NCBI GenBank assembly: GCA_030837625.1
Contig: JAUPKF010000002.1
Span: forward strand, 168-64,167
Direction of reading: 5' to 3'
Length of the DNA stretch: 64,000 nt
Source of the DNA: Patescibacteria group bacterium
Lineage (GTDB): Bacteria; Patescibacteriota; Minisyncoccia; Moranbacterales; UBA2206
The translations under genes were made by a program, and so were the position numbers. The notes beneath the pieces are model-generated. The model saw only the letters and a program-made list of their open reading frames with translations. It had not been told where the DNA came from and searched no databases. Below are positions 11,401 through 61,791 of the stretch, in pieces. The first letter of the stretch is position 1, and every line of letters begins with the position of its first letter.

Positions 11401-11474
<74 letters not shown>

Positions 11475-17628: not shown

Positions 17629-17629
17629 A

Positions 17630-17765: not shown

Positions 17766-17771
17766 ATCCAA

Positions 17772-28062: not shown

Positions 28063-28077
28063 CCCAATTGGTGGGGG

Positions 28078-28150
28078 GATAAATCAGAGCGCTACATTGA
28101 CATTGTAGAGGTTTCAGAGGTTCGAGTCCTCTCACGCCCACAGGAAGTTT
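28078..28150 (+). pseudogene. 3' part of the outer tRNA-Val(GAC)-like gene (D-stem 3' strand, anticodon arm, T-arm, acceptor 3' strand)
   Basis: ataaatcagagcgc tacattgacattgta(anticodon GAC) gaggtttc agaggttcgagtcctct cacgccc a. Confidence 0.5.
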
Positions 28151-28165
28151 TTTAAAAAAATGATT

Positions 28166-28501: not shown

Positions 28502-29491
28502 TTATTTTTTTCTTCTCCTTCCGTGAAACGCTTGATGGACTTCTTTGAGCTGCTTGTTGGTAACGTGGGTGTAAATTTGGGTGGTGGTGATGGAAGAATG
28601 GCCGAGCATAGCTTGCACCGAGCGGATGTCGGCGCCATTAATCAGTAAATCCGTAGCAAAAGAATGGCGAAGCGTGTGCGGATGGACATCTTTGACAATT
28701 CCGGCTTTGGCGGCGTAATATTTGACGATTCTCTGGACGGAGCGGGGGGTTAATCTTAAACCAGCGTTATTATCCGTAGGGGTTCGATTAATCGAACCCC
28801 TACTTTTATTTTCGAATTTTGCCAGTCCTTTAACATCTCTCACAAACAAAGCCGGATCAATATCCATCCGCTTATCCAGATACGTCTCCAGCGCTTTCTT
28901 GGCACTTTCTGAAATAAAAACCACCCGAATTTTGTCGCCTTTTCCTCGCACGGAGAGTTCCCCGGATCCCAAATTCAACTTATCCCGATTGATGCTGACG
29001 AGTTCCGATACTCGCATTCCGGCCGAAAAAAGCATCTCCAGCATCGCTCGGTCGCGAAGCGACTTAAAATCAATTCCAGACGCCGCCCCGATAATCCTTT
29101 CCACTTCTTCCGGTTCCAAAAATTCAATTTCGCGCGCCGGAGATTTCCCAATCTCGACCTTTTCCGCGATCAATGTCTTAATGTCCCGCTTTGCCAGATA
29201 TTTAAGAAAGCTTCGAAGGGCTATAACGTAATAGCCCTGGGTAGCTTTTTTCAAGCCTTTTCCATTCTCATCTTTGTAGCGGCTCAGATGCAAGCGAAAG
29301 TTTCTTACCAATTCATCTGTAATTTCGGACGGCTTCGCTATTTTTGCCCAATCAAAAAACACCCGCAAATATCGACTATAATTTTCAATAGTCTTTTGCG
29401 AACGGTTCTTTTCTATTTCAAGATATTCCAGAAACTGAGTTTTTAGTCGCTCAATTCCACTTTTTTGTATCTTTTCTGTTTCATGTTTCAT
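28502..29491 (-). CDS. xerC: tyrosine site-specific recombinase (XerC/XerD-like integrase)
   Basis: catalytic region HTLRHSFATDLLINGADIRSVQAMLGHSSITTTQIYTHV; N-terminal SAM-like core-binding domain; 3' end lies 44 bp from the tRNA-Met 3' end. Confidence 0.85.
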   Translation of the reverse strand: MKHETEKIQKSGIERLKTQFLEYLEIEKNRSQKTIENYSRYLRVFFDWAKIAKPSEITDELVRNFRLHLSRYKDENGKGLKKATQGYYVIALRSFLKYLAKRDIKTLIAEKVEIGKSPAREIEFLEPEEVERIIGAASGIDFKSLRDRAMLEMLFSAGMRVSELVSINRDKLNLGSGELSVRGKGDKIRVVFISESAKKALETYLDKRMDIDPALFVRDVKGLAKFENKSRGSINRTPTDNNAGLRLTPRSVQRIVKYYAAKAGIVKDVHPHTLRHSFATDLLINGADIRSVQAMLGHSSITTTQIYTHVTNKQLKEVHQAFHGRRRKK

Positions 29492-30930: not shown

Positions 30931-31083
30931 CAAATTTCTAATTCACCTAATTTCTAATTCACCTAATAAAATTCAAAATTCATCAATACCTAATACAAAA
31001 AGTTATTTAGATTTTAACATTTTATTTTGCTATTTTGACTTTTATTAGGTGAATTAGGTAATTAGACAATTAGGTGAATTTTT
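30931..31083. repeat. about 150-bp imperfect palindromic element with 'ttcacctaatt' arms (copy 1)
   Basis: ttcacctaatttctaattcacctaataaaattc ... ttttattaggtgaattaggtaattagacaattaggtgaattt; the arms are exact reverse complements of the arms at 47028-47201. Confidence 0.75.
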
Positions 31084-33442: not shown

Positions 33443-33460
33443 AACTAACCAATTATAGCA

Positions 33461-33500
33461 CAAAAGAAAAAAAACCCCGATTAACGCTGTCATCGGGGTG
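33461..33500 (-). terminator. rho-independent terminator (minus strand)
   Basis: ccccgatgacagcgttaatcgggg followed by ttttttttt on the minus strand. Confidence 0.6.
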
Positions 33501-33517
33501 GAACCGAGAGAAATCTT

Positions 33518-33690
33518 ACACGAATTTATCCTCACTGAGCCATTTTATAGCCCGCTCAATGAGTTTTTTCTGCCTCTCTGAAACATCTTCCCATGTATCT
33601 TCTTTCGCTGAATTCCAATACTCAGAGCTTTCATCTTCAAATAAGTATCTACCTTCATATACCGTTTCAACCTCTATCTTTATCCTCATT
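33518..33690 (-). CDS. hypothetical small protein (57 aa, MRIKIEVETVYEGRYLFEDESSEYW...)
   Basis: ORF not in the supplied track (below 60 aa), found by reading; followed by the terminator. Confidence 0.35.
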
Positions 33691-34135: not shown

Positions 34136-34903
34136 ATGTCAAATAATATTGATAAAAACAAAAAAAGCGAAATTCTGACGGACTTAAAATCACTCGGCTT
34201 AAGCGAGAAAGAAATAGAAGTATATATCGCCCTTTTGGGCTTGGGGGAAGTGGGAAGCTCAAAAATAGTTAAAAAAACCGGCCTTCACGGCCAATTCGTC
34301 TACAATGCGCTTGGTAGTTTGGAAGAAAAAGGCTTAGTTGGACATATAATCAAGCGTGGGAGAAAAAAATTCAATGCTAAAAATCCTCGTGTTTTGGAAA
34401 GACTAGCCGAGCATCAAAAAAGAATCGCTCAAAGCGTGGCGGAAAAGCTTAATCAAATAATGGTTTTACCGGCCGAACAAGAATATGAGGTTTTTCAGGG
34501 CAAAGAATCCTATATCGCGCACGAATTCGAACTTCTGGAAAAAGCGGACGAGAATAGCGAGTTGCTAATTATCGGAGGATCGGGTGATGAATTTATCGCC
34601 CATATGAAAGATGAATTTAAGAGATACGAGAAAATAAGGAGAAACAAAAAAATTCGCATAAAGTACCTCGGAAGCGAAGACCAGTTGGAATATTTAAAAG
34701 ATAACGCTAAAAGTAGGGATTTCTTTGAGTATAAAGTCCTGCCCGGGCTTTTTACTGGAATGGTCAACACTAATATTTGGCAAGGATTTATCGCATTCAA
34801 TATTTTTGGAGAACCAGTCACAAGTTTTGTAGTTTTAAATCCAATTATCGCCAGCTCCTACAAGCAATTCTTTGAAACTTTATGGCGATTAGCAAAAAAA
34901 TAG
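34136..34903 (+). CDS. TrmB-family transcriptional regulator
   Basis: HTH LGLSEKEIEVYIALLGLGEVGSSKIVKKTGLHGQFVYNALGSLEEKGLV; paralog of 9246-10010 and 35929-36672. Confidence 0.75.
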   Translation: MSNNIDKNKKSEILTDLKSLGLSEKEIEVYIALLGLGEVGSSKIVKKTGLHGQFVYNALGSLEEKGLVGHIIKRGRKKFNAKNPRVLERLAEHQKRIAQSVAEKLNQIMVLPAEQEYEVFQGKESYIAHEFELLEKADENSELLIIGGSGDEFIAHMKDEFKRYEKIRRNKKIRIKYLGSEDQLEYLKDNAKSRDFFEYKVLPGLFTGMVNTNIWQGFIAFNIFGEPVTSFVVLNPIIASSYKQFFETLWRLAKK

Positions 34904-34924
34904 GGCTTTTGCCACAAGGGTTCC

Positions 34925-34960
34925 GGCGAGTTTGCGCAGTGCGCAGCTCGCCTTTTTTTA
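34925..34960 (+). terminator. rho-independent terminator
   Basis: ggcgagtttgcgcagtgcgcagctcgcc hairpin followed by tttttttatttg. Confidence 0.65.
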
Positions 34961-35057
34961 TTTGAAAAAGAAGTTATCCACAGATAATCCTTGCGCAAAG
35001 CTGGACAAATCTTATTTAAAATGATACTATATCACTGTAATAATTTAATCCAACAAA

Positions 35058-35894
35058 ATGGAGAAAACAAAAATTGCCTTATGGCAAGGAAATGAAATCA
35101 GAAGAACAATTTTTGACAATACTTGGTGGTTCGTTGTGGAAGATATAGTATTGGCACTCATTGATTCGAATGACCCTAAACAATACATACAAAGAATGAA
35201 ACAACGAGACGAAGAATTAACCAAAGGATGGGTACAAATTGTACATACCCTTGATGTGCCAACTAAGGGCGGCAAACAAAAAATGAATTGCGCCAATGTT
35301 GAAGGCATTCTTCGTATAGTTCAATCTATCCCATCCTCCAAGGCCGAGCCATTTAAACGCTGGCTGGCGAAAGTGGGCTATGAAAGAGTGCAGGAAATTG
35401 AAAATCCAGAGCTAGCAGCTCAAAGAGCAAGAACACTTTATCGCGTCAAAGGTTATCCCGAAAGCTGGATAGAAAAAAGAATGCGTGGAATTGAAGTGCG
35501 AGAAACCCTGACCAATGAGTGGAAAAATCGCGGCGCTAAAGAGAATATCGAATTTGGAATTCTTACCAATGAAATTTTGAAAGGCGCTTTCGATATGACA
35601 GCGGGAGATTATAAAAAATTCAAAGGCCTAAAAAGAGAGAGCTTGCGCGATCATATGGACGACATCGAACTCGTCCTTACCATACTCGGCGAAGCGACCA
35701 CCACCCGACTTCATCAAGGCAGAGATTCTCGGGGATTTCAACCACTTAAAAAGGATGCGAAAGACGGCGGAGATATCGCCGGCAGAACCAGAAAGGACAT
35801 CGAGCAAAAGTTAGGCAAACCGGTAATTTCCAGAAAAAATTTCAAACATTTGAACAATAAGAATAAACTGAGAAGCGGCCGAAGTTTACAATAA
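35058..35894 (+). CDS. Bro-N domain protein (DinD / phage antirepressor-like)
   Basis: N-terminal Bro-N-like region (WWFVVEDIVLAL...); a typically phage-associated family. Confidence 0.6.
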   Translation: MEKTKIALWQGNEIRRTIFDNTWWFVVEDIVLALIDSNDPKQYIQRMKQRDEELTKGWVQIVHTLDVPTKGGKQKMNCANVEGILRIVQSIPSSKAEPFKRWLAKVGYERVQEIENPELAAQRARTLYRVKGYPESWIEKRMRGIEVRETLTNEWKNRGAKENIEFGILTNEILKGAFDMTAGDYKKFKGLKRESLRDHMDDIELVLTILGEATTTRLHQGRDSRGFQPLKKDAKDGGDIAGRTRKDIEQKLGKPVISRKNFKHLNNKNKLRSGRSLQ

Positions 35895-35928
35895 TCATTG
35901 TAAAGATCCTCAATAAAGAGCAAGCAAT

Positions 35929-36672
35929 TTAAAATACGACGCAAGAGCGGACAGTCAAATCCCAAATCACTTCAAAAAAACTTTTTTGCGTGTCGTGGAT
36001 TTTCTGGCTTTCAATAATAATCGCGATTTCTTCGTCATAGGACACCAGACCGACTTTATTATTCCCATAAATCACCATTTCAATTTCAACTTTGAACTTA
36101 TCCGACAAAACCAACTTGCTTTGAAAAAAATGCTCTTTTTCGTTTTGGGCAACACCTCGAAGTTCCGGATTATCCTGAAAAAGAATTCTCGCCCAGATCT
36201 TTTTCTCTTTTCTTTTGGGAATGAAGTATTCCGTGAAGTAATTACCATAATTCCAAAATTTTTCATTGAACGTGCCTAACATTTCGTTGTCCGGATATTT
36301 CAAAACATCGCCAAAAACATCCTTGTAGGATTCTTTTCCTTCGAAATAACGAATTTTGGGCTTTTTGTCGATGAGATTGTTAAAAGCCAGAAGCTCCGGC
36401 AGAATTTTGTCGAGAGCTCTTTTCTTGTTTTCGAGCATTTCCGCGAGCTTTTTAGGGTTCTCGGCATAGCAAATAATGACGTTATTGCGATGATATTCAC
36501 TCATTAAGCCTTTTTCTTTCAAGTTTTCCACCGCCAAATACGTCGTCGTCCTTTTTACGCCAGATTTCTTAGCCAGGCGATAGACGCTAGTTTCCCCCAA
36601 TTCCAACGCCGCCATATATACTTTAGCCTCGTTTTCGCTTAATCCAGCATTTTTTAGTTCATCAATATGCAT
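35929..36672 (-). CDS. TrmB-family transcriptional regulator
   Basis: HTH AGLSENEAKVYMAALELGETSVYRLAKKSGVKRTTTYLAVENLKEKGLM. Confidence 0.75.
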   Translation of the reverse strand: MHIDELKNAGLSENEAKVYMAALELGETSVYRLAKKSGVKRTTTYLAVENLKEKGLMSEYHRNNVIICYAENPKKLAEMLENKKRALDKILPELLAFNNLIDKKPKIRYFEGKESYKDVFGDVLKYPDNEMLGTFNEKFWNYGNYFTEYFIPKRKEKKIWARILFQDNPELRGVAQNEKEHFFQSKLVLSDKFKVEIEMVIYGNNKVGLVSYDEEIAIIIESQKIHDTQKSFFEVIWDLTVRSCVVF

Positions 36673-36897
36673 GATTTCGATACTTTAGAGTTACTGTCAT
36701 CAATTATGACGACACTACGATTGTAACATATAATATAAAAAATGCAATGTTAAAGCCACTAATATTATACTTGCCATGTTCGTACTCTCTTGATTAGTCT
36801 CTCTGTATGGACTAATAGCCGAAATAATGTTATACTACGCAGTCAAGCTGGAGAAGGGCTTCAGTAAGACAAGAACCTTAAAAAATGGAGACGGAAA

Positions 36898-37224
36898 ATG
36901 AAGAAGAAAAAAGCATCGATAGAAGAAATTATCGCCGTAATCAAGAAGATTAGGGACGACTACGAAATTGGAGAACGGGTCTGTGAAAAGGTGCTTGAAA
37001 AATATAAGAGTGGCGAGTTAACGTATTACTACGAAACTGAAGAAATGGACCTCTACTACCTTAGGATACAAATAGAAGCGAATATCGAAAAAACCTTACG
37101 GGATTCTTGGCTACCAAGCATATGTTACGGGCCACGTGCGGGGAATAGTGGCATCTTTGTTGAGTTATCGCCCCAGAATACTTTAAAACCATACTTTTGG
37201 AGAGTTAAACGACGAGGAAGATGA
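36898..37224 (+). CDS. hypothetical protein (108 aa)
   Basis: GGAG RBS; its stop overlaps the start of the next gene (atga), indicating an operon. Confidence 0.5.
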   Translation: MKKKKASIEEIIAVIKKIRDDYEIGERVCEKVLEKYKSGELTYYYETEEMDLYYLRIQIEANIEKTLRDSWLPSICYGPRAGNSGIFVELSPQNTLKPYFWRVKRRGR

Positions 37225-37874
37225 GAAGTTTTCAGAAGAAAGGAGGTGACAGTTCTTTTACCACAAGGGTTTTGGCGGGCATGTGCAAAGCATACACATC
37301 GCTCGCCTTTTTTATTATTCAAAAATTATGGTATAATAAGCAAATGCGAAAAGAAAAACAAAATTTAGAAGAAGTTGTTATTGATCCAGGAACAAGGGCC
37401 AAGTTTTTGGCAGGAATACTTGATAAGCAAACCAAATTGCTCCAACATTTAGATTCTCAAACAAATATCTTAATCGGCATCAGCTCGGCTATGTTTGCAT
37501 TCATGACTGCCGGATTTCGTCTTAACAACTTGTCCTGGCCGCAAATCATCCTTGGATTCTTCTCGGCATTAACAGCTCTATTAGGTTTGTATGCGATACA
37601 TCCTCCAAGATTCATGAGGAAAAAGGGTCAAAAAGAAAGCGTCATGTATAGCGGTAAGATATCTGATTTTTCTTCTCCTTCTATTTACAAGAAAGAGCTG
37701 GGAAACATTGTATCTGATCAAAATAAAATGCTCGAGCAATATTCGATAGAAATATACAACGTGGCTAAATATTATTATGACCCCAAACGCAAAATTTTCA
37801 AAATTGCCCGCAACATTCTTTTGATTGGGTTTTTTATAAGTATAATACTTTTTTTGGCGCCTCTATTTTCCTAA
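37221..37874 (+). CDS. hypothetical membrane protein (2 central TMs + C-terminal TM)
   Basis: translationally coupled to 36898-37224; TMs ILIGISSAMFAFMTAGF, IILGFFSALTALLGLYAI, ILLIGFFISIILFLAPLF. Confidence 0.5.
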   Translation: MRSFQKKGGDSSFTTRVLAGMCKAYTSLAFFIIQKLWYNKQMRKEKQNLEEVVIDPGTRAKFLAGILDKQTKLLQHLDSQTNILIGISSAMFAFMTAGFRLNNLSWPQIILGFFSALTALLGLYAIHPPRFMRKKGQKESVMYSGKISDFSSPSIYKKELGNIVSDQNKMLEQYSIEIYNVAKYYYDPKRKIFKIARNILLIGFFISIILFLAPLFS

Positions 37875-44913: not shown

Positions 44914-44953
44914 CCCGATTCGAATCTGCGAATGAATCCGAATTTACGAATGA
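44914..44953. repeat. REP/MITE half-element (cccgattcgaatctgcgaatgaatccgaatttacgaatg) at the dksA-like stop / lspA start
   Basis: begins at the taa stop codon; supplies the atgaatccgaat (MNPN) start of the next ORF. Confidence 0.65.
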
Positions 44954-45450
44954 AACACATTGTTCTATCTTTTCCTATATTATTTTTGATTTCCATCGAC
45001 CAGCTTTCTAAATATATTATCCGCGTAAAAGGCGGATTTTATATTTGCAACACCGACCTGGCTTTTGGATTGAAACCATCGTATTTTTTAGTATTTGCTA
45101 TAATATTAATAGCTATATTATCCTTAGTCGCGGTCGGAAATAGCAAATTCAAAATTACAAATTTCAAACAAATAACAATATCAAAATGCAAAACTCAAAA
45201 ATCGCTCTGGTTTGAAAAATTTGAATTTGTAATTTTGAATTTATTTGGAATTTGGAGTTTTGGATTTGGGATTTTACTCATTGCCTCCGGTGCGATATCA
45301 AATATAATCGACAGAGTATTATATGGCTGCGTCATCGACTTCATCGACCTTCATTTCTGGCCGGTATTCAATTTGGCGGATGCCTTTATCACGATTGGTG
45401 GTATAATGATAATCATGAAACACGTAGCATACAACACGAAACAACCATAG
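44932..45450 (+). CDS. lspA: lipoprotein signal peptidase II with an in-frame GAATTT-repeat insertion
   Basis: LspA motifs ([23 protein letters not shown]); the segment [20 protein letters not shown]...[18 protein letters not shown] is encoded by repeat 45118-45262; the N-terminal MNPNLR is repeat-derived and the true start may be MKHIV (44950). Confidence 0.75.
45118..45262. repeat. GAATTT/GGATTTT repeat with internal dyad symmetry inside lspA
   Basis: aaattcaaaattacaaatttcaaacaaata...aaatttgaatttgtaattttgaatttatttggaatttggagttttggatttgggatttt. Confidence 0.65.
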
Positions 45451-48170: not shown

Positions 48171-48320
48171 TTTTTTCGTAAGAAAAAATTAGTTGAGCAT
48201 CCTGAGCGAAAGCGAAGGATCTATTTTTGCTTGAAAGTTTCCAGATAACTCGCTAGAATAAACAACTGATGCGAAGTTGGAAAATTTAAAAGGGCAATTC
48301 CTGAAATTAGGAATCGCCCC

Positions 48321-48592: not shown

Positions 48593-49459
48593 ATGCAACC
48601 AAAGAAATCACTAGGACAGAATTTCCTCAGAGATAAAAATATTCTTGATAAAATAATCCGAGCCGCTGATTTAAAGGCGGATGATTTTGTAATTGAAATT
48701 GGTCCCGGAGAAGGCGTACTGACTCTTAAGCTAATTAAACATACTAGTAAGGTTATTGCCATTGAGAAAGACGAGAATCTGGCGGAAAAGTTAGCTAAGA
48801 ATTTTCAATTTTCAATTTTCAGTTTTCAATCAATTTCCAATGATCCAATTTTAAATTTTAAAAATAAAGCCGCTGTTATTGTCGGAGATATGCTTAAAGC
48901 TAACTTGCCCTTACTCATAGAAAATAATTTCGTAAATTCGGATTTATTCGTAGATTCGAATCGGTTTAATTATAAAGTTATCGCCAATATTCCGTATTAC
49001 ATAACGTCGCCGATTATTAAGTTGTTTTTGGAAACAAAATATCCGCCCAAGGAAATGATTCTGATGGTGCAAAAAGAAGTGGCGGAGCGTATCTGCGCCA
49101 GCCCCGGACAAATGAGCATCTTGGCGGTGAGCGTGCGATATTACGCCAAAGCAGAGCTGTTATTTCACGTCGACAGAAAAAGTTTTTGGCCGGCGCCGGA
49201 AGTGGATTCGGCGGTGATACGAATTCATGAAACACGAAACATGAAACATGAAACAAAAGAAGACACAAAGAACTTTTTTAGAATAGTTAAGGCTGGGTTT
49301 TCGGCTAAAAGAAAAATGTTATTAAATAATTTATCCAGCAGTTTGCATTTGGAGAAAAAAATAGTCGAGGAAAAATTGAAAAAGGTCGGGATAGATCCTA
49401 GTCGAAGAGCGCAAGAACTTTCTGTTGAAGAATGGAAAAAATTAGCGAAAATTATGTAG
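48593..49459 (+). CDS. ksgA: 16S rRNA (adenine1518/1519-N6)-dimethyltransferase with three in-frame repeat insertions
   Basis: SLGQNFL, EIGPGEGVLT motifs; inserted segments NFQFSIFSFQSISNDPILNFKNK (GAATTT repeat), FVNSDLFVDSNRF (REP/MITE 48930-48964), IRIHETRNMKHETKED (catgaaac repeat). Confidence 0.85.
   Translation: MQPKKSLGQNFLRDKNILDKIIRAADLKADDFVIEIGPGEGVLTLKLIKHTSKVIAIEKDENLAEKLAKNFQFSIFSFQSISNDPILNFKNKAAVIVGDMLKANLPLLIENNFVNSDLFVDSNRFNYKVIANIPYYITSPIIKLFLETKYPPKEMILMVQKEVAERICASPGQMSILAVSVRYYAKAELLFHVDRKSFWPAPEVDSAVIRIHETRNMKHETKEDTKNFFRIVKAGFSAKRKMLLNNLSSSLHLEKKIVEEKLKKVGIDPSRRAQELSVEEWKKLAKIM
48930..48964. repeat. REP/MITE right-end fragment inserted in-frame in ksgA
   Basis: tcgtaaattcggatttattcgtagattcgaatcgg. 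Confidence 0.6.
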
Positions 49460-52315: not shown

Positions 52316-52440
52316 GTATACTAAAATCCAAATTTCCAAATCCAAATGTCAAATAAAACCCCAAATCAAAAATCCAAAATTTGTCATTGAGATTTGGGAT
52401 TTTGTTGGATATTGAGATTTTGTCATTGGGATTTTTGAAA
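52316..52440. repeat. GGATTTT/CCAAAT low-complexity repeat, intergenic
   Basis: ctaaaatccaaatttccaaatccaaatgtcaaataaaaccccaaatcaaaaatccaaaatttgtcattgagatttgggattttgttggatattgagattttgtcattgggatttttgaaag. Confidence 0.6.
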
Positions 52441-52447
52441 GTTTTTT

Positions 52448-53434
52448 ATGTTAAATATAAAAACAATATATAAAAAATTCTTCACCGTAATCTTCGTCTT
52501 TGTTGTTTTCCTGTTTTCTCCCATAAAATCAGCCAACGCCGCGCTCTGGCCGGCCATTGATCCGCAGTACAAGCAGATGCTGGAAGAAATCCACGAGCGC
52601 ATCACCGGCATTATGCTGGGAATGCTCAAGCAACAAGCTATGACGATGCTCAACCAGCAAATCAGCAAACTGGTCGGCGGCAGTTCCACGTCTTCCGCTA
52701 TGTTCATCACCGATTGGCAAAGCTACCTGGTCAAAGAACCGGAGGAGAAAACCAAACTGTATATGAACGATTATTTGAGCCAAGTCACCAAAGGCCGCGG
52801 CTCGTCAACAGGTTACATCGGCGAAGGATTTTCCGGCTCGGGAAATTATTCCAAGCAGTTGGTGGAAATCGGCAAGAAAACCACCGTGGACAAACCGGCC
52901 GTTCCACAGATGACCTATGAAGGCGATCCGTCGCAAATGTTCGCCGGCGGAAATTTCAAAAACCTGAGCCTGTATCTTTCCGGCATCAACAACCCCTGGG
53001 CTTTTTCCATCAACGCCCAAAGCGAATATCAGAAAAAACTGGAAGAGGAAAAGAAAATCGCCGAAACCAAAGCCGTCGCCAACGAAGCTTTCAAGAGCAA
53101 CGAAAAAAAAGTTGACGACAAGGGCAAGACCATCGTAATCACGCCCGGTTCGCTCATCAAAGAAAATATGGCCAATGTCCAAGATCTTGGCAACAAGATC
53201 ATCGCCTCCGCCACCCATCCGGAAGAAATCATTTCAGCCGTCGTCCAGCAAATGATCACCAAAGCCATCCAGCAAGGCGTCGGAGAGATTGAAAAAGCGG
53301 TTCAGAAAGAATTCGACAGTGTCAGCGGAAAAATCGGCACCCAGCTCAACACCCAAACATCCACCAGCGGTCCCGGAACGCAATACAAAACCGAATACGC
53401 CAAGTGGCTGGAGAAGATGAAAACAGGGAACTAA
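52448..53434 (+). CDS. secreted hypothetical protein (328 aa)
   Basis: signal peptide ...PIKSANAA; the 5' leader and first codons (MLNIK) are near-identical to those of the gene at 53925. Confidence 0.55.
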   Translation: MLNIKTIYKKFFTVIFVFVVFLFSPIKSANAALWPAIDPQYKQMLEEIHERITGIMLGMLKQQAMTMLNQQISKLVGGSSTSSAMFITDWQSYLVKEPEEKTKLYMNDYLSQVTKGRGSSTGYIGEGFSGSGNYSKQLVEIGKKTTVDKPAVPQMTYEGDPSQMFAGGNFKNLSLYLSGINNPWAFSINAQSEYQKKLEEEKKIAETKAVANEAFKSNEKKVDDKGKTIVITPGSLIKENMANVQDLGNKIIASATHPEEIISAVVQQMITKAIQQGVGEIEKAVQKEFDSVSGKIGTQLNTQTSTSGPGTQYKTEYAKWLEKMKTGN

Positions 53435-53464
53435 TCAGCAGAAAATCCAAATTTCCAAATCTCA

Positions 53465-53863
53465 ATGCCAAACAAAATCCAAAATCCCAACAAAAATAGC
53501 AACAGCTACGACCTCATAGAAAGAACGGCTAAATTTGGAGAAGATGTTATTGAGTTTGCCGGAACATTACCTAGAAATGAAATTAATCGACCACTTTTAA
53601 GTCAAATAGTGAGATCTGGAACAAGCATTGGAGCTAATTATATGGAAGCCGATGGAGCAGTATCGAAAAAAGATTTTGAAAACAAGATTGGCATTTGCCG
53701 AAAAGAAGCTAAGGAGAGTATGCATTGGTTTAGAATGATTGCCAAAGCCAACCCGAACCATAAAGACAAATGCAGAGAGCTATATAAAGAATCCCAGGAA
53801 TTTGTATGGATATTTTCATCCATCATAAATAGTTCCAAAAACAACAGCAAGAACAAAAAATAA
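53465..53863 (+). CDS. four-helix-bundle protein (TIGR02436-like)
   Basis: YDLIERTAKFGEDVIEF...SQIVRSGTSIGANYMEADGAVSKKDFENKIGICRKEAKESMHW, typical of this family. Confidence 0.7.
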   Translation: MPNKIQNPNKNSNSYDLIERTAKFGEDVIEFAGTLPRNEINRPLLSQIVRSGTSIGANYMEADGAVSKKDFENKIGICRKEAKESMHWFRMIAKANPNHKDKCRELYKESQEFVWIFSSIINSSKNNSKNKK

Positions 53864-53920
53864 TTGTGATTTGGGATTTTATTGGATATTGAGATTTTGT
53901 CATTGAGATTTTTGAAAGCT
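53862..53920. repeat. GGATTTT repeat / duplicated leader
   Basis: aattgtgatttgggattttattggatattgagattttgtcattgagatttttgaaagc, near-identical to 52380-52440. Confidence 0.6.
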
Positions 53921-53924
53921 TTTT

Positions 53925-56060
53925 ATGTTAAATATAAAAATAAAAAATAACTTAATTCTGGCTGTCTTTTTTATCATGGCGGTTGTTTTGGGATTTGGCG
54001 CCGTCAAAGTCGAAAGCGCAAGCGCTTGGGATTGCGTCTGTGCAGGGAAAAACCTTACAGATCCAGGAACAATCATTCGCGTAAAGTGTAATGACACTGG
54101 TTGGTGGCCAACTCAAGACTGTAGAGATGTCTGTAGTAAGGATTGTAAAGATAAAGGATTTACCGGAGGAGTAATATCAGTAACAGGAGCCCCTCCTGGA
54201 GCCAAGATGGAAGGAGCAAATGATGTATGCCAAGGGCTTGGCATTACCACCGCCAGCGTATCCACATTGTTCAATTGTCTATTGCTTCATGTACTAAACT
54301 TTTTAACTTGGATTCTACAGGCAGCGGCATCCCTTTTTATAGCCATAATCGATCCGAAAAATTTAACCGATGTTATAAGCAATAAAATCATATACGAGAT
54401 ATGGACACTGGTTAGAGACACACTGAACGTCGCTTTTATTTTGACGCTTCTTTTTTCCGCCTTCGCTACTATTTTCCAGGTAGACAAATTCAGCTATAAG
54501 AAAATCCTCCTCACGCTCGTCATTATGGCGCTTCTGGTCAATTTCAGTTTTCCTATCGCCCGCGTCATTATTGATTTCTCCAATGTCATAATGTATTACT
54601 TTCTCAATGGACTTGAGTTCAAACTTCAAAACAAGACAGGAATAAGCAGCTTGTTCTCCAACATAGCCGATTTTGGAAGACTTAAAGACATTTTACATCC
54701 TAAGGCTGGAATTTATGCAGATACTTCATACCTGGTAGCCTCCGTTATTTTTGTTTTCATTTTGGGAGTAACTTTCCTGACTATCGCTATCCTATTCGTT
54801 ATACGAACCATCGCTCTAGGCGTCCTAATGATTTTCTCTCCTCTGGCCTTTGTCGGATCAATTGTCCCATTTCTTTCTTCCCACGCCAGCAAATGGTGGA
54901 CTAATCTTTTCAATTATTCTTTTTTTGGACCAATAATGGTTTTTATGATCTATGTTTCCGTGAGAATGATGGACTCGATTAGCGTTGCAGGAGCATCCAT
55001 AGACAGCATTGCATCCACCACGTCCGGAGACCCAAGCGTTGTTGCGGCTATCTCATTTTTTGCCATTCCCATCGTCATCCTTTGGATCGGCATCGGCACC
55101 GCGCAAAGTATGTCCATCGCCGGCGCCGGCGCGGTAGTGGGGAGAGCGAATAAGTTTATGAATTGGGCGGGAATGAAGTTCAGTGGCCTTGATTGGGGAA
55201 ATAGAAGACTTAAGGCGTACCAAACAGAAAGAAAGAAAAGAGCAGATGAACGATTCAAGGATAATTGGGGTCAAAGATTGGGACGAAGTATCAACAGGAC
55301 ACAAGACAGAATTCATGGCGCATTGCCTATCCCAGGCAGAGCAAGAGCTCAAAGAAGATTGGAGAATTTGCACAATGCCGACGTCAGAGAACATATGCAA
55401 AGAATCAATGACATAACAAATGAAGATGAGCTAGCAAATCTATTTGATCAAGCAGGAAGTGAGGCTGAAAGGGAAGCTATTCTTAGAAGAGCGGCTGCAA
55501 TTGGCGGCACAAGCACCATTTTGAATAGAGCAGGACAAACCAACGACATTGATGGTTTCACCACTTTCATGCAAAATAACTTCGGAAATACTGACAGATC
55601 GGCAAGGCTCGCATCTACAATATCTGGTTTGGAGAGCGCTCGACACAATACTCAATTTAGCGGAGTTTCATCATATGTTGGAAATCAATATCAATATAAT
55701 CAAGGAACGCCTGGTGGAGCGAATCGCATCGATGATGCGGTTTTCGCCGCAGTTGCTGGAGAACATCAGCAAAATATGTTCAGGAACCTAAGAGCCGGGC
55801 AAATAGTTACACGGGGTGCCGGAGGAAACATAGTAGGAATGAACAACCAATTTGAAGCTGTTTTGCAAAGAGTGGGGGATGATGCCTTGTTCGGCCAATA
55901 TATAACTCCGGCCGCGGGAAATAACAATTATCAATTAAATCAAGTTCCTCAAGCTGTTGTTGACCAATTGACACAAGCGGTAAACGCGGGACACCTACCA
56001 CCTGCCGGATCAAGAACGGAAGCCTTCTTTGAAGCTCTTAGAGCACAAGGAAGAATTTGA
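53925..56060 (+). CDS. VirB6/TrbL-like polytopic membrane protein with N-terminal Cys-rich ectodomain and Gln/Asn/Gly-rich C-terminal tail
   Basis: signal peptide; 8-Cys module (WDCVCAGKN...KCNDTGWWPTQDCRDVCSKDCKDKGF); at least 8 TMs; low-complexity tail; neighbours are VirB3/VirB4 homologs. Confidence 0.6.
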   Translation: MLNIKIKNNLILAVFFIMAVVLGFGAVKVESASAWDCVCAGKNLTDPGTIIRVKCNDTGWWPTQDCRDVCSKDCKDKGFTGGVISVTGAPPGAKMEGANDVCQGLGITTASVSTLFNCLLLHVLNFLTWILQAAASLFIAIIDPKNLTDVISNKIIYEIWTLVRDTLNVAFILTLLFSAFATIFQVDKFSYKKILLTLVIMALLVNFSFPIARVIIDFSNVIMYYFLNGLEFKLQNKTGISSLFSNIADFGRLKDILHPKAGIYADTSYLVASVIFVFILGVTFLTIAILFVIRTIALGVLMIFSPLAFVGSIVPFLSSHASKWWTNLFNYSFFGPIMVFMIYVSVRMMDSISVAGASIDSIASTTSGDPSVVAAISFFAIPIVILWIGIGTAQSMSIAGAGAVVGRANKFMNWAGMKFSGLDWGNRRLKAYQTERKKRADERFKDNWGQRLGRSINRTQDRIHGALPIPGRARAQRRLENLHNADVREHMQRINDITNEDELANLFDQAGSEAEREAILRRAAAIGGTSTILNRAGQTNDIDGFTTFMQNNFGNTDRSARLASTISGLESARHNTQFSGVSSYVGNQYQYNQGTPGGANRIDDAVFAAVAGEHQQNMFRNLRAGQIVTRGAGGNIVGMNNQFEAVLQRVGDDALFGQYITPAAGNNNYQLNQVPQAVVDQLTQAVNAGHLPPAGSRTEAFFEALRAQGRI

Positions 56061-57383: not shown

Positions 57384-57452
57384 CCCGATTCGAATCTACG
57401 AATAGCATTCGTAAATTCGCAGATTTGTAGACATTCGTTGATTCGAATCGGA
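57384..57452. mobile_element. REP/MITE (ccgattcgaatctacgaat...attcgttgattcgaatcgg)
   Basis: starts at the taa stop; terminal inverted repeats ccgattcgaatc / gattcgaatcgg. Confidence 0.7.
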
Positions 57453-57460
57453 TAAAGATT

Positions 57461-57850
57461 ATGCTATTCAACGTCCCACAATTCATCGACATCGAAGACA
57501 AAATCGTCGGCCCGCTGACCGCCAAACAGCTGGGCTGGTTGGGATTGGCCGGAGTGATTCTTCTGATTCTCTGGAATTTTCTCGACACTCAAGCGATGAT
57601 CATCGCCGCCGTTGTCGTCGGCGGAGTTTTCGGCGCGCTGGCGTTCTACCGCCCGTACAACCAATCTCTCATCCAATTTATTTTTTCCTCATTCCTCTTC
57701 GCCACCCGCCCCAAAATCTATATCTGGCGGAGATTCTATGATAGTATGAATACAGAAAAGAAAACCGACAAAAAAATTGAAATCGTTAAGGAAAGAAAAA
57801 AGTTGAACAGGGAGAAGATAGGAGAAATAGCGAAGAGACTGAATTCTTAA
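57461..57850 (+). CDS. PrgI/VirB3-like small membrane protein
   Basis: N-terminal VPQFIDIEDKIVGPLTAKQLGWLGLAGV, matching the PrgI-family signature; two TMs. Confidence 0.6.
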   Translation: MLFNVPQFIDIEDKIVGPLTAKQLGWLGLAGVILLILWNFLDTQAMIIAAVVVGGVFGALAFYRPYNQSLIQFIFSSFLFATRPKIYIWRRFYDSMNTEKKTDKKIEIVKERKKLNREKIGEIAKRLNS

Positions 57851-57888
57851 CCCGATTCGAATCTACGAATGAATCCGAATTCACGAAT
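57851..57888. repeat. REP/MITE left-half element
   Basis: cccgattcgaatctacgaatgaatccgaattcacgaat, starting at the stop codon; contains the atgaatccgaat used as the start of the next ORF. Confidence 0.65.
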
Positions 57889-58270
57889 AATAAAAACAAG
57901 CATAAATGTTTTATATCCGGAACTATCTTACACTATAAACGGGATTTGTTTTAATGTGCATAATAAATTAGGAAGGTTTTGCAGAGAAGTTCAATACGCC
58001 GATGAATTGGAAGCGGAACTTATCAAGAAAAAAATTCCCTATAAAAGAGAATCCAGAATATTAAAACAAGATAAATTTACTCGGAACATAATCGACTTTA
58101 TTGTAAACGACTGCATAATACTGGAACTCAAGGCAAAAAGCATTATAACAAAAGATGATTATTATCAAGCAAAGAGATACCTGATCTCATCCAATAAACA
58201 ACTGTGTCTTATTGTCAACTTCAGAGATACCTACTTAAAGCCTAAAAGAATTTTGCATAATAATTCGTAA
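57869..58270 (+). CDS. GxxExxY-family protein (PD-(D/E)XK-like)
   Basis: LSYTINGICFNVHNKLGRFCREVQYADELEAEL...IIDFIVNDCIILELKAKS...YYQAKRYLISSNKQLCLIVNF matches the GxxExxY family; the N-terminal MNPNSR is repeat-derived. Confidence 0.65.
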   Translation: MNPNSRIIKTSINVLYPELSYTINGICFNVHNKLGRFCREVQYADELEAELIKKKIPYKRESRILKQDKFTRNIIDFIVNDCIILELKAKSIITKDDYYQAKRYLISSNKQLCLIVNFRDTYLKPKRILHNNS

Positions 58271-58307
58271 ATTCGCAGATTCGCATACATTCGTAGATTC
58301 GAATCGG
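58264..58307. repeat. REP/MITE right-half element
   Basis: ttcgtaaattcgcagattcgcatacattcgtagattcgaatcgg. Confidence 0.65.
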
Positions 58308-58311
58308 TATT

Positions 58312-59001
58312 ATGGAGACTCTACATTCCTCACAACTAGCCAACAAAGCCACGACCACCGCCACCCAAAAGTATCTCGACGTTGCGGAAGTTAAGGAAGA
58401 CGTGGTGGTTTTGAAATCCGGATCTATTCGGGCGATTTTAGCCGTATCGGCTATCAATTTCGAGCTCAAATCCACCGAGGAACAGGAAGCGATTATCGGG
58501 CAATACCAGAACTTTCTCAATTCCATCGATTTTCCCTTGCAAATCCTCATCAGCTCCCGGCGGCTCAATATGGAAAATTATTTGAGTTTCCTAACCGATA
58601 AAGAAAAGCAGCAGCCCAACGAGCTTTTGCGGATGCAAATCGCCGAATACAAAAACTTCATCGACCAGCTCGTCAGCGTTTCCAACATAATGGACAAGAA
58701 TTTCTACATCATCGTTCCTTTTTCGCCGATTGAAAACAAAGACAAGGGATTCTTCTCCAAAGTTTCCAGTATGCTAAACCCCAAAAGAGAAATTATGGAA
58801 AAAAGAGAAAGTTTTGAAATGATGAAAAGCCAGCTATACCAAAGAGTCGACCACATCATCGCCGGACTGGCCGGCATTGGTCTTCGCATAATTCCGCTCA
58901 AAACCGAAGAACTGATCGAACTGCTGTTCAACTCCTACAACCCCAGCGTGTACAATTCAGTGGAATTGAAGGAAGTAAGCAAGCTGGAGCTACTGAAATA
59001 A
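58312..59001 (+). CDS. virB4: VirB4/TrbE N-terminal domain, encoded as a separate ORF
   Basis: YLDVAEVKEDVVVLKSGSIRAILAVSAINFELKSTEEQEAIIGQYQNFLNSIDFPLQILI fits the conserved VirB4 N-terminal pattern; 229 + 604 aa together match full-length VirB4. Confidence 0.6.
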   Translation: METLHSSQLANKATTTATQKYLDVAEVKEDVVVLKSGSIRAILAVSAINFELKSTEEQEAIIGQYQNFLNSIDFPLQILISSRRLNMENYLSFLTDKEKQQPNELLRMQIAEYKNFIDQLVSVSNIMDKNFYIIVPFSPIENKDKGFFSKVSSMLNPKREIMEKRESFEMMKSQLYQRVDHIIAGLAGIGLRIIPLKTEELIELLFNSYNPSVYNSVELKEVSKLELLK

Positions 59002-59152
59002 CCCGATTCGAATCTACGAATGAATCCGAATTCACGTATCCGAATAGCCTGCTACGAATAGGCACATTCGAATGGGCGCATTCGTAGCGCGCTATTCGGA
59101 TGCTTTCATTCGTAAATTCGCAGATTCGCATACATTCGTAGATTCGAATCGG
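59002..59152. mobile_element. full-length REP/MITE, about 150 bp, separating the two VirB4 ORFs
   Basis: cccgattcgaatctacgaatgaatccgaattcacg...internal palindrome ccgaatagcctgctacgaataggcacattcgaatgggcgcattcgtagcgcgctattcgg...cattcgtaaattcgcagattcgcatacattcgtagattcgaatcgg. Confidence 0.75.
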
Positions 59153-59159
59153 CTAAATT

Positions 59160-60974
59160 ATGTTTAATCTATTCAAAAAACAAAATACCGCCGAGAATCT
59201 GGATGAAATCATCGCTTCTGAGAAATTCTATCAAGAGGGCGTGGCGCGCCTCAATGATTTGATCGCGCCCGCGGCCATCAAAATCACGCCGCGCCACATC
59301 CGCGTGGGCGAAACCTTGGCGGAAACGATATTCATCATCACTTACCCCCGCTACCTCCACAGCAACTGGTTTTCTCCGATCATAAACATCGACATGCCGA
59401 TTGATATTTCAATGTTTATCCATCCCATCGAAACCTATGATATCTTGAAGACTCTTCGCAAAAACGCCACCCGGGTGGAATCCCAAGTCCATATCGAACA
59501 GGAGAAAGGACTTATCCGCGATCCGGCTTTGGAAACAGCTATGCAAGACATTGATGAACTGCGCGACAAGCTCCAGCAAGGAACGGAAAAGTTTTTCCGC
59601 TACGGCCTCTATATCACCGCTTACGGCGAGACGGAAAAAGAACTCAACGAACTGGTTCGCAGCATTGAAGCCATTTTGGAAGCGCAGTTGGTTTACGTGA
59701 AACCGGCTATTTTCAAAGCCGAACAAGGCTACAATTCTTCTTTGCCTTTAGCCAACGACGAACTGGACATCGGCACCAGCATGAACAGCGCGCCGCTTTC
59801 CACCACCTTTCCTTTCGTTTCCTCAACCTTGTCTTCCAACACCGGCATCCTCTACGGTGTCAACCGCCACAACAACAGTTTGGTCATCTTTGACCGCTTC
59901 AGCATGGAAAACGCCAATATGGTCATTTTCGCCAAGTCCGGCGCCGGAAAAAGCTATACTGTGAAATTGGAAGTTTTGCGTTCGATGATGCTGGGCACGG
60001 ACGTCGTCATCATCGACCCGGAAAACGAATACAAGCATCTCTGTGAAACTGTCGGTGGAAACTTCGTAAAAATCTCTTTGAATTCCAAAAATCATCTCAA
60101 TCCGTTCGATCTGCCGAAAGTGGCCGAAGATGAAGATCCGGCCGACATTCTCCGAAACAACATTGCTTCACTTTTGGGACTTTTGCACATAATGCTCGGC
60201 AATATCACGCCGGAAGAAGATTCGGTACTCGACCGCGCCATCCGGGAAACTTACGACGCCCGCGACATCACAGCGCAGTCCAATTTGAATATGCTCACGC
60301 CGGAATCCTTTCCCACGATGACTGACCTTTACCAAATTCTCCGCAGTCTGGAAGGCGGAGAAAACTTGGCCATCCGCTTGGAAAAATATACTGAAGGAAT
60401 TTTCGCCGGATTTCTCAACAACACCACCAACATCAAATCCGACAATCAGCTGACGGTTTTCAACATCCGCGATATGGAAGAAGAACTGCGCCCGGTGGCG
60501 ATGTATACCGTCATGCAGTTCATCTGGAACGAAATGCGGACCAACCTGAAAAAAAGATTGGTACTGGTGGACGAAGCCTGGGTAATGATGAAATATGAAG
60601 ACGCCGCTTCCTTTATGTTTGGAATTGCGAAAAGGTGTCGAAAATATTATACTGGACTTACCACCGTCACCCAGGACGTGAATGATTTTTTGAGCTCGCG
60701 CTACGGCAAAGCCATCGTAACCAACTCCTCCATCCAACTGCTTCTCAGACAATCTCCGGCCGGCATCGACGTTATCTCGGAAACATTTTATCTGACCGAT
60801 CAGGAAAAGTTTTTGCTTTTGGAATCCAACGTCGGAGAAGGAATATTTTTCGCCGGCACCAAGCACGTCGCCATCCGCGTGGAAGCATCGTACTCTGAAG
60901 ACCAAATCATCACCACCGACCCCGCCCAGCTTTTGGAAATTGAGAGGGCCAAGAAGGAGTTTGAGGAAGAATAA
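59160..60974 (+). CDS. virB4: VirB4/TraC-type conjugative ATPase (ATPase domain)
   Basis: Walker A FAKSGAGKSYT, Walker B LVLVDEAWVMM, TTVTQDVNDF motif. Confidence 0.8.
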   Translation: MFNLFKKQNTAENLDEIIASEKFYQEGVARLNDLIAPAAIKITPRHIRVGETLAETIFIITYPRYLHSNWFSPIINIDMPIDISMFIHPIETYDILKTLRKNATRVESQVHIEQEKGLIRDPALETAMQDIDELRDKLQQGTEKFFRYGLYITAYGETEKELNELVRSIEAILEAQLVYVKPAIFKAEQGYNSSLPLANDELDIGTSMNSAPLSTTFPFVSSTLSSNTGILYGVNRHNNSLVIFDRFSMENANMVIFAKSGAGKSYTVKLEVLRSMMLGTDVVIIDPENEYKHLCETVGGNFVKISLNSKNHLNPFDLPKVAEDEDPADILRNNIASLLGLLHIMLGNITPEEDSVLDRAIRETYDARDITAQSNLNMLTPESFPTMTDLYQILRSLEGGENLAIRLEKYTEGIFAGFLNNTTNIKSDNQLTVFNIRDMEEELRPVAMYTVMQFIWNEMRTNLKKRLVLVDEAWVMMKYEDAASFMFGIAKRCRKYYTGLTTVTQDVNDFLSSRYGKAIVTNSSIQLLLRQSPAGIDVISETFYLTDQEKFLLLESNVGEGIFFAGTKHVAIRVEASYSEDQIITTDPAQLLEIERAKKEFEEE

Positions 60975-60977
60975 AAC

Positions 60978-61106
60978 CCGATTCGAATCTACGAATGAAT
61001 CCGAATTCACGAATAAAGGCATCCGAATAGCACACTACAAATGTGCCCATCCGAATAACTTCATTCGTGAATTCGTAGATTCGCATACATTCGTAGATTC
61101 GAATCG
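60978..61106. mobile_element. full-length REP/MITE
   Basis: cccgattcgaatctacgaatgaatccgaattcacgaat...catccgaatagcacactacaaatgtgcccatccgaata...attcgtgaattcgtagattcgcatacattcgtagattcgaatcgg. Confidence 0.75.
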
Positions 61107-61115
61107 GATAACGAA

Positions 61116-61688
61116 GTGCTATACGATTACCAAAAACAACAAGCGCTGGAAGAGGCGAGGAGGAGAGATAAAGAGAAAAAAGCCAGAGAAACACTGAAAA
61201 AATACAATGCTGGAAAAAATAAAGGACAGGCAAAAAACGTAACTCAAGACGTTAAAAACAACGCTGAAGCCATAAAGAAAGCTATGACACCGCTGGGATT
61301 CCTCTCGCTTCTTTTCCAAATAAGTATTTTTTCCGATTGGATGTATGGACTGGCTATTTTCGCCGCCGTTCTCAAAGACATCATCGATTTCACCGGACTC
61401 GGCTCACTCCCGGGAATCGGCACTGTCATCACTTTTTGCATATCGATTTTCATCGGCTTTATGATGCTCCTGGGGAGCTTTACGAACGGCGCAGGGAGAA
61501 GACACCAAAAGATTATCAAAAGCTGGTTGATCCTGCTTGGCGGGACAACGATCGAAATGCTTTTTGGCCTAAATTTTCTGCCCGTAGAAACCCTGACTGT
61601 TTTATCCGTTTATGTCTTATATTTAGCCGGCAAGAAACAAGCCCGGGAAGAAAATAAAAGAACATCCGCGCAAGAAAGCTACGCGTGA
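61116..61688 (+). CDS. hypothetical membrane protein (190 aa), member of the secretion-like cluster
   Basis: charged N-terminus followed by 4 TMs. Confidence 0.5.
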   Translation: MLYDYQKQQALEEARRRDKEKKARETLKKYNAGKNKGQAKNVTQDVKNNAEAIKKAMTPLGFLSLLFQISIFSDWMYGLAIFAAVLKDIIDFTGLGSLPGIGTVITFCISIFIGFMMLLGSFTNGAGRRHQKIIKSWLILLGGTTIEMLFGLNFLPVETLTVLSVYVLYLAGKKQAREENKRTSAQESYA

Positions 61689-61693
61689 TAAAA

Positions 61694-61791
61694 CCCGATT
61701 CGAATCAACGAATATATGCAAATCTACAAATACTTCCCTTGTTATTATTTGTAGATTCGTGAATTCGAATTCATTCGTGGATTCGAATCGG
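61694..61791. mobile_element. REP/MITE copy
   Basis: cccgattcgaatcaacgaat...tgtagattcgtgaattcgaattcattcgtggattcgaatcgg. Confidence 0.7.

Follow-up and report, generated by a model that had tools for sequence, protein, structure and literature searches.

Why does a palindromic repeat stand directly behind the stop codons of consecutive genes in a bacterial operon? This question is raised by a 64,000-nucleotide stretch of DNA from a Patescibacteria group bacterium (assembly GCA_030837625.1, contig JAUPKF010000002.1, positions 168 to 64,167 of the forward strand), the whole of which is called the window below. The repeat, CCGATTCGAATC...GATTCGAATCGG, is here named family A and recurs at positions 57384-61791. 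It had been annotated initially as a family of repetitive extragenic palindromic (REP) sequences or of miniature transposable elements with inverted repeats (MITEs). Our analysis indicates that family A is probably a mobile, largely selfish palindromic element of protein-coding operons, resembling MITEs and the intervening sequences (IVSs) of 23S rRNA. The part of the annotation that describes a mobile, MITE-like palindromic repeat at gene boundaries was retained; the assignment to REP sequences or their hairpin-forming doublets (REPINs) was dropped, as arm size, end motif and associated gene all differ.

Census and anatomy of family A

The window was searched on both strands for the 20-mer CCGATTCGAATCTACGAATG of the family-A arm, allowing up to three mismatches, and the expected number of matches was derived from dinucleotide-preserving shuffles. 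Fourteen matches were obtained where 0.02 were expected, all of them arms of the palindrome. They sorted into four complete hairpins without an open reading frame (ORF) at 57384-61791, one ORF-bearing element of 457 bp, one hairpin of 104 nt and two lone arms. A palindromic repeat with near-identical ends of 20-40 nt, so far above chance, supports the interpretation as a mobile element. The arms are 37-45 nt long and composed of imperfect ATTCGNAN octamers in tandem (for example cATTCGTAa ATTCGCAg ATTCGCAtac ATTCGTAg ATTCGAAtcgg). Folded as RNA, each complete copy formed one long hairpin, with energies of -26 to -77 kcal/mol and z-scores of -3.9 to -11.8.

The four ORF-less hairpins and the ORF-bearing element lie on the forward strand. 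E1 (57384-57451, 68 nt; dG -25.9, z -4.7) is located between the gene for a 435-aa protein (stop codon 57381-57383) and a PrgI/VirB3-like gene (start 57461). The ORF-bearing element (57851-58307) has its left arm at 57851-57888 and its right arm at 58264-58307, and encloses a GxxExxY/PDDEXK_3 gene at 57869-58270. E3 (59002-59152, 151 nt; dG -77.2, z -11.1) occupies the junction of the VirB4 N-domain and VirB4 ATPase genes, E4 (60977-61107, 131 nt; dG -60.1, z -11.8) that of the VirB4 ATPase gene and a 190-aa gene with a GTG start at 61116, and E5 (61694-61791, 98 nt; dG -36.5, z -6.4) that of the 190-aa gene and a CAAX-protease-like gene. Repeat tables showed an internal second palindrome in the two larger ORF-less copies, at 59027-59112 in the case of E3. 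The arm types of E5 are in reverse order relative to E1-E4. Full copies had been described as 100-150 bp long with terminal inverted repeats (TIRs) of about 40 bp; the TIR length was confirmed, while one full copy measures only 68 nt.

The 104-nt hairpin (33110-33213, minus strand) is complete and forms part of the reading frame of uvrD/pcrA (31082-33535, also minus strand). A lone left-type arm on the forward strand (44914-44953, containing the ATG at 44932 with which the longest lspA ORF begins) directly follows the stop codon of a dksA/traR-like gene. The other lone arm, left-type and inverted (48929-48968, minus strand), lies in frame inside ksgA/rsmA (48593-49459). The initial annotation listed intergenic copies only, so that the two within coding sequences were additional to it. 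Of the half-copies that it mentioned, 57851 and 58264 are the two ends of the single 457-bp element. A 4-kb composite element bounded by the lone arms at 44914 and 48968 was also considered and rejected, given that the right arm is in frame in ksgA, the N-terminal half of which would fall inside such an element. Among the traits of MITEs, family A showed terminal inverted repeats, small size, lack of a transposase and multiple copies.

Placement at stop and start codons

From 57.3 to 61.8 kb, family-A elements adjoin the stop codons of five consecutive genes. The TAA codons ending at 44913, 57383, 57850 and 59001 run straight into CCCGATTCG, and at E4 two A residues separate the TAA at 60974 from the element at 60977. 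The first stop codon at E5 is a TGA (61686-61688) followed by TAAAA; the element begins 5 nt past the TGA and 2 nt past the following TAA. The earlier claim of seven copies starting 0-3 nt after an upstream TAA therefore stands for those at 44914, 57384, 57851, 59002 and 60977, and for 61694 only when counted from the later TAA. It fails for 58264: this position marks the right arm of the element at 57851, and the TAA of the enclosed gene (58268-58270) falls within that arm.

The left-arm motif ATGAATCCGAAT, thought to donate start codons to neighboring genes, does open the ORFs 44932-45450 (MNPNLR...) and 57869-58270 (MNPNSR...). For the second of these, the GxxExxY gene, the start belongs to the cargo of the element itself, and the gene starts at the same left-arm ATG position in two loci of other genomes (L071 and L191; such loci are denoted by L and a number). 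For the first, lspA, a second in-frame ATG at 44950 (MKHIVLSF...) is no less plausible than 44932 as the start. A Shine-Dalgarno (SD)-like motif was found for only 7 of 43 genes in the window, and the spacers therefore need carry no ribosome-binding site (RBS). Many gene starts in the window have TTCGTA-type repeat units 3-10 nt before them.

Whether copies elsewhere are associated with stop codons had been named as the test of a non-random placement. In other genomes, 14 of 62 family-A termini abutted the stop codon of an ORF of at least 100 aa, compared with 123 of 9800 random positions. The base flanking the terminus was T in 47/83 cases, followed by A/T in 74/83 and again A/T in 77/83, and a TAA or TTA was located within 5 nt of the terminus in 60/83. 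The arrangement TAA-N-element-N-TAA was seen in E1, E3, E4 and the copy of L180, and the elements of L116 and L197 are positioned exactly as TA/AGT...ACT/ATG.

Filled and empty junctions in orthologous operons

The region 53.9-62.5 kb forms a type-IV-secretion-like operon. It encodes, in this order, a CD3337/EF1877-like membrane protein, the 435-aa protein, the PrgI/VirB3-like protein, the VirB4 N-domain (TrsD-like) protein, the VirB4 ATPase, the 190-aa protein and the CAAX-protease-like protein. A metagenome scan with the VirB4 ATPase resulted in 80 loci of common gene order and 71-99% identity, across which the lengths of the junction spacers were bimodal. At four junction types, 104 of 239 spacers were 60 nt or longer, while the remainder (∼56%) were minimal and consisted of TAA, 1-10 nt and ATG (e.g., ...aaaTAAaATG...). 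The long spacers were filled by hairpins from many unrelated sequence families, each with its own unit of 7-9 nt, and one genome tended to reuse one hairpin family at several junctions (the window; L100; L114/L116/L157). Of the 70 distinct spacers of 60-230 nt, 48 each consisted of a single dominant hairpin, with a stem that began at a median of 3 nt after the stop codon and ended at a median of 8 nt before the start codon. As more than half of the spacers are minimal and the others hold unrelated hairpins, the hairpins are insertions and not conserved operon punctuation. The view that family A systematically separates the genes of a secretion-like operon was accordingly abandoned, since the same junctions in the 80 operons are mostly empty or occupied by unrelated hairpins.

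In the closest relative, L100, the VirB4 ATPase is 98-99% identical at the protein level; three junctions carry a different hairpin family and the E5 site, between the 190-aa and CAAX-protease-like genes, is empty. The E3 junction is empty in many relatives. Together with the bimodal spacers, the empty E5 site of L100 shows that family A is polymorphic for presence and absence at orthologous sites. We also considered whether the element at 59002 had caused the split of VirB4 into two ORFs. This was rejected, as the split was present in all 74 relatives, including those with an empty junction.

Some junction spacers measured 445-534 nt and encoded GxxExxY (window, L100, L116), four-helix-bundle (L140, L148) or GIY-YIG (L112) proteins. 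Insertion of one palindrome into another was found in L112, L116 and L157. In the spacer of L112 between the 435-aa and PrgI genes, the GIY-YIG nuclease gene lies in a GTCATCCTGAGCG...CGCTCAGGATGAC palindrome, which is itself nested within another hairpin; the GCATCCTGAGCGAAAGCGAAGGATC motif of this palindrome also occurs in the window at ∼48185-48225, after a gene ending at 48170. The arms of L116 and L157 contain small nested G+C-rich palindromes (CCGCCTCGACTCGC...GCGAGGCTGG).

The enclosed GxxExxY gene

The longer relative that shares its TIRs with the ORF-less copies encodes a GxxExxY protein of the PD-(D/E)XK type. ORF 57869-58270 matched TIGR04256 with 71.6 bits as well as PF13366 (PDDEXK_3), above the curated cut-off. 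Its ATG lies within the left arm and its TAA within the right arm. Read directly from the translation, the protein contains ...IIDFIV...ILELKAK..., corresponding to the D...ExK motif of PD-(D/E)XK nucleases, and D76 and K88 were invariant in 44 GxxExxY homologs. A sequence search of the PDB returned nothing significant for this protein, PADLOC gave no match, and PHROGs gave a match only to a family of unknown function.

Every GxxExxY gene examined in other genomes was enclosed by inverted repeats, and the repeat sequence shifted with the divergence of the protein. Arm ends read CCGAT(T/G)CGAA... at 60-100% protein identity, AGTATCGATGCTAAT at 59%, AGCGATACGAATGAC at 49% and GTTTTACTAAATAC at 30%. 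The ORF-less hairpins of L100 and L116 bear the arms of the GxxExxY copy of their own genome.

Copies within housekeeping genes

Alignment to PcrA (1pjr) showed that the copy in uvrD/pcrA adds an insertion of ∼34 aa (query residues 84-117) between PcrA residues 84 and 89; the insertion is orthologous in L086. The arm at 48929-48968 corresponds to an insertion of 8 aa relative to B. subtilis KsgA (6ifs). Judged from the reading frames, family A thus appears to share with Rickettsia palindromic elements (RPEs) the trait of in-frame insertion into protein-coding genes. Other palindromes or arms built of heptamer units were also found in frame, in lspA (45132-45275), uvrD (31957-32032), ksgA (∼48800-48870) and the ORF of a CCA-adding enzyme (7520-9259; palindrome at 8873-8946). 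Coding insertions of other families include ITNYKLQINSKYKIQNS in UvrD and a 15-aa FQFSIFSFQSISND in KsgA. Altogether, there are at least six coding insertions of palindromes or arms within the 64 kb.

Distribution of family A and conservation of its arms

A pattern scan of species-representative genomes gave many chance matches in high-GC genomes, and only low-GC loci of the candidate phyla radiation (CPR) were informative. Among the matches listed, a family-A terminus together with a second CGAATCTACGAAT unit was present in many CPR metagenome-assembled genomes (MAGs), including Moranbacteria, Parcubacteria, Paceibacterota and other bins. Complete TIR-GxxExxY-TIR units of 456-466 bp were found in L071 and L190/L191. 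Such units lie between a glycosyltransferase and a UDP-glucose dehydrogenase gene in L071 and L190-195, between murA and mreB in L180-189 and between two MacB/FtsX genes in L197. The GxxExxY homolog at the murA-mreB site is 60% identical and has CCGATGCGAAAC... arms; L180 shares the TIR-GxxExxY-TIR architecture of the 57851 element.

The orthologous insertions of L071 and L191 were identical at 46/47 positions of the left arm and 40/43 of the right arm, compared with 81% identity in the ORF core and 75% in the flanking genes. Likewise, the arms of the uvrD copy were near-identical between the window and L086, and the loop and flanks had diverged.

In one Moraniibacteriota MAG (L043, 3265-7892), seven successive spacers of the rplB...rplX ribosomal-protein genes hold the same family-A-derived unit of ∼90 nt. 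It consists of the internal module and one arm and forms no more than a weak hairpin; all units point the same way, and 7-10 nt separate the terminus from the ATG that follows. Clear family-A arms were also noted in low-GC MAGs labelled "uncultured Bdellovibrionales" (L013, L018/L090, L040, L099). Either family A extends beyond Patescibacteria or these bins are misassigned.

Comparison with known elements

By analogy of structure, family A resembles 23S rRNA IVSs more than classical REP repeats. In Coxiella, the IVS measures 428-444 nt; its ends form an inverted-repeat stem of 28 bp, it includes tandem heptamers, its loop bears an ORF for a four-helix-bundle protein, and RNase III removes it from the transcript (PMC4990558). 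Of the non-intron insertions in CPR rRNA genes, some encode 23S_rRNA_IVP or GIY-YIG proteins and others are short and have no ORF (bioRxiv 10.1101/2024.02.27.582315). Family A and IVSs (Coxiella, Leptospira, Salmonella and the CPR rRNA insertions) have in common a size of ∼430-460 nt with an ORF and ∼90-150 nt without, a long terminal inverted repeat as basal stem, tandem heptamer or octamer units and a sporadic distribution. A small loop ORF that starts near or in the stem is found both in the GxxExxY element at 57851-58307 and in a 23S_rRNA_IVP element at 53442-53912. The cargo families shared with IVSs include the four-helix-bundle S23p/23S_rRNA_IVP and GIY-YIG proteins, which occur at the same operon junctions. 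In contrast to IVSs, family-A copies are located in mRNA spacers or coding sequences and not in helix 25/45 of 23S rRNA; their cargo is a GxxExxY PD-(D/E)XK protein, and the coding copies would, as far as their frames indicate, be translated and not removed.

RPEs, ∼100-150 bp long, lie in frame in housekeeping genes, whose protein products gain additional surface loops by their translation (PMC10969869). The copies in uvrD and ksgA are similar, whereas most family-A copies are intergenic and occupy stop/start spacers; in addition, the lineage is Patescibacteria, the sequences differ and an ORF-bearing relative exists. With Correia repeat enclosed elements (CREEs), enterobacterial repetitive intergenic consensus (ERIC) sequences and other MITEs, family A shares TIRs, small size, co-transcription with neighboring genes and presence/absence polymorphism between strains. 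It differs from them by its octamer-array arms, its insertion almost exactly between stop and start codons and the lack of a related insertion sequence with a DDE transposase. Correia transcripts are cleaved by RNase III at the TIR stem (PMC10969869), and this cleavage and the effects of ERIC sequences on mRNA (PMC10969869) are the nearest functional precedents.

REP sequences, bacterial interspersed mosaic elements (BIMEs) and REPINs likewise occupy operon spacers as extragenic palindromes and may influence how stable the mRNA is; they are set apart from family A by their size, by their end motifs and by the gene associated with them, and the window contains no REP-associated tyrosine transposase (RAYT). 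The heptamer arrays of cyanobacteria and Beggiatoaceae (e.g., TAACTGA) lie just upstream of start codons lacking an RBS and sometimes overlap the upstream stop codon (PMC4679880). Arrays of 7-8-nt units just before such starts are common to both, but the heptamers are repeated directly and have neither a palindromic partner nor a cargo gene.

Alternative explanations

One alternative is an RNA structure selected by the host. The hairpins could be kept as punctuation of polycistronic mRNAs, in the form of RNase III sites, stabilizers of 3' ends or translation-coupling modules, with mobility being only their mode of arrival. This would fit the conservation of arms above coding DNA at orthologous sites, the stem that has its base at the stop codon and ends a median distance of 8 nt short of the following start, the SD-poor genome, and the ribosomal-protein operon of L043, in which each spacer is filled in one orientation 7-10 nt from the ATG. 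RNase III is moreover known to cut Correia elements and IVSs, and ERIC sequences alter mRNA decay (PMC10969869; PMC4990558). Yet ∼56% of the orthologous junctions lack an insert, those with one contain unrelated sequences, and the copies in uvrD and ksgA would do harm if cleaved. Selection at the RNA level should also leave an asymmetry between strands, whereas the comparison of sense and antisense gave 26 vs 28 for stability and 138 vs 177 for G-U pairs, without a bias to the sense strand. Rfam, at gathering and permissive thresholds, contained no family for the hairpins and detected no rRNA in the window. A function as intrinsic terminator, one of the roles offered by the initial annotation, was discarded: none of the hairpins is followed by a U-tract, the right flanks read (N)TAAA... 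and are not T-runs, and a promoter/terminator scan gave no excess and no site at any hairpin. The other proposed roles, RNA processing or translational coupling by the hairpins, are possible. On balance, we regard an origin of the pattern in host-selected RNA structure as unlikely.

Three further explanations concern how the palindromes arose. They might have formed in place by slippage or hairpin-templated expansion of 7-8-nt units, followed by gene conversion and without any transposition. The arms are indeed tandems of short units, dozens of unit sequences are found at the same junction in different genomes, and no clear target duplication is present; however, identical ends of 20-40 nt at unlinked loci and in many species, the same complex unit with a conserved gene in different genomic contexts and the nested insertions of L112, L116 and L157 make this improbable. 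Extragenic palindromes in high copy at gene ends would also be expected of REP sequences or REPINs mobilized by a RAYT (an HUH tyrosine transposase) encoded elsewhere in the genome, of which 64 kb are in view. An excerpt of PMC3733652 defines these as imperfect palindromes of 20-40 nt with a conserved GTAG or CGTC head. Family A has arms of 37-45 nt, elements of 68-151 nt and ends of the type CCGAT... (CCGATTCGAATC) in place of the GTAG/CGTC heads given there, and the gene between its arms is GxxExxY in at least four genomes. No Y1 transposase was found among the ∼57 window ORFs scanned with Pfam, and Pfam scans of all major window ORFs revealed neither a RAYT nor another transposase, the sole recombinase being an Xer-like protein (28502-29491). 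A REP/REPIN origin is therefore given very little weight. Least credible of all is an array of integron-like cassettes with the palindromes as attC sites. Imperfect palindromes with conserved ends and variable centers after each ORF would suit it, but the syntenic type-IV-secretion-like operon is conserved in 80 loci with or without hairpins, copies occur inside coding sequences, and the window contains no intI and no adjacent integrase, its only tyrosine recombinase being the Xer-like one 28 kb away.

Proposed mode of spread

The interpretation of family A as a mobile, largely selfish element is supported directly by its anatomy, the identity of multiple copies, the insertion polymorphism at orthologous sites, the linkage and co-variation of arms and GxxExxY gene, the in-frame coding copies and the T/A-rich flanks. 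In the mechanism that we propose, the full unit of ∼460 bp consists of two inverted arms of ∼40 nt, made of ATTCGNAN octamers, around the gene of the GxxExxY PD-(D/E)XK nuclease, and the hairpins of 68-151 nt are ORF-less, MITE-like derivatives that have retained the same arms. Spread may take place at the DNA level with the help of an arm-recognizing protein, for which the enclosed nuclease is the obvious candidate, and TAA/TTA may serve as the insertion target. Survivors would be found mainly in the stop-start spacers of 1-10 nt in co-directional operons, and a few in frame in tolerant protein loops. The hairpin in the transcript probably makes the copies tolerable, as its stem base juxtaposes the upstream stop codon and the downstream start codon within ∼10 nt. 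With the hairpin looped out in the mRNA, or cut by RNase III, co-transcription and SD-independent re-initiation could continue across it.

Several observations weigh against such an element. The arms are conserved above coding DNA in orthologous copies across species, which is not expected of pure junk unless gene conversion or a function is involved, and neither this conservation at old orthologous copies nor the ribosomal-protein operon of L043 is explained by simple junk. As the half-unit of L043 folds only weakly, hairpin formation is not the whole story. No unambiguous target-site duplication, transposition event or excision footprint was demonstrated. In the other copies and families examined a target-site duplication was absent, and filled/empty pairs gave only suggestive TAA/TTA flanks. 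A scan of IMG/VR found no family-A copy and thus identified no vector by which the family could pass from one genome to another. GxxExxY is not among the known transposases, and the cargo ORFs could be passengers, since equivalent hairpins are occupied by four-helix-bundle cargo that lacks a nuclease fold.

Beyond family A itself, we tentatively consider, as a possibility at less than even odds, that the GxxExxY, four-helix-bundle and GIY-YIG hairpins and their ORF-less derivatives belong together in one unrecognized superfamily of mobile, intercistronic elements, within and outside Patescibacteria, of which the classical 23S rRNA IVSs are only the rRNA-resident members. The arms would then be recognized sequence-specifically by the small protein of the element itself, which would explain their conservation above coding DNA. 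Such elements would home in on the TAA/ATG boundary of adjacent cistrons, carrying their own stop codon and an A/U-rich restart region, and could spread cheaply even into essential genes and operons of ribosomal proteins.

No account of such palindromes in CPR operons came up in the literature searches. New are the association with GxxExxY, the precise colonization of cistron boundaries across many CPR genomes and the conservation of arms above coding DNA. The long-unexplained 23S rRNA IVSs and the abundant "GxxExxY" and "four helix bundle" proteins would gain a genomic context and a testable role in a mobile palindrome. Reduced CPR genomes, usually considered repeat-poor, are riddled with palindromic insertions, which lengthen spacers, add peptide loops to the essential enzymes UvrD, KsgA and LspA, break assemblies and mislead gene callers on starts and stops. 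Their exact placement between stop and start codons makes them a natural system in which to examine how SD-independent translation handles long intercistronic hairpins.

Other repeats and genes in the window

The 23S_rRNA_IVP element at 53442-53912 (forward strand) belongs to another sequence family, with arms AAATCCAAAT.../...ATTTGGGATTT; its loop gene (53465-53863) encodes a four-helix-bundle "23S rRNA intervening sequence protein". ORF-less copies of this family were found at 17627-17766 and 52323-52435. A direct repeat of 88 nt (52386-52473 and 53863-53950, 92% identical) contains the AAATCCAAAT/ATTTGGGATTT palindrome's right arm. Two different genes downstream, 52448-53434 and 53925-56060, take their ATG and ∼8 opening codons (MLNIK...) from it. 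In this case a repeat genuinely provides two host ORFs with their start.

A group I intron match (28188-28394, 71 bits) is located 126 nt downstream of a tRNA gene (27989-28062; region 27963-28394) and is followed by the gene of the Xer-like tyrosine recombinase. The tRNA lies in a segment of 142 nt of which an inverted second copy (90%) is found at 11359-11500. Within or beside an O-antigen-ligase-like ORF (12993-15083), the perfect palindrome TGTTCCACGTGGAACA is present four times in the region 13301-14507, together with a direct repeat of 124 nt at 13301-13424 and 14243-14366 (89%). The region 34136-37874 encodes a cluster of TrmB-like regulators (another lies at 9246-10010), a BRO-N domain protein (35058-35894) and a Pycsar-effector-like membrane protein (37221-37874) whose match is below the Pfam cut-off. 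This cluster may be a mobile or defence islet.

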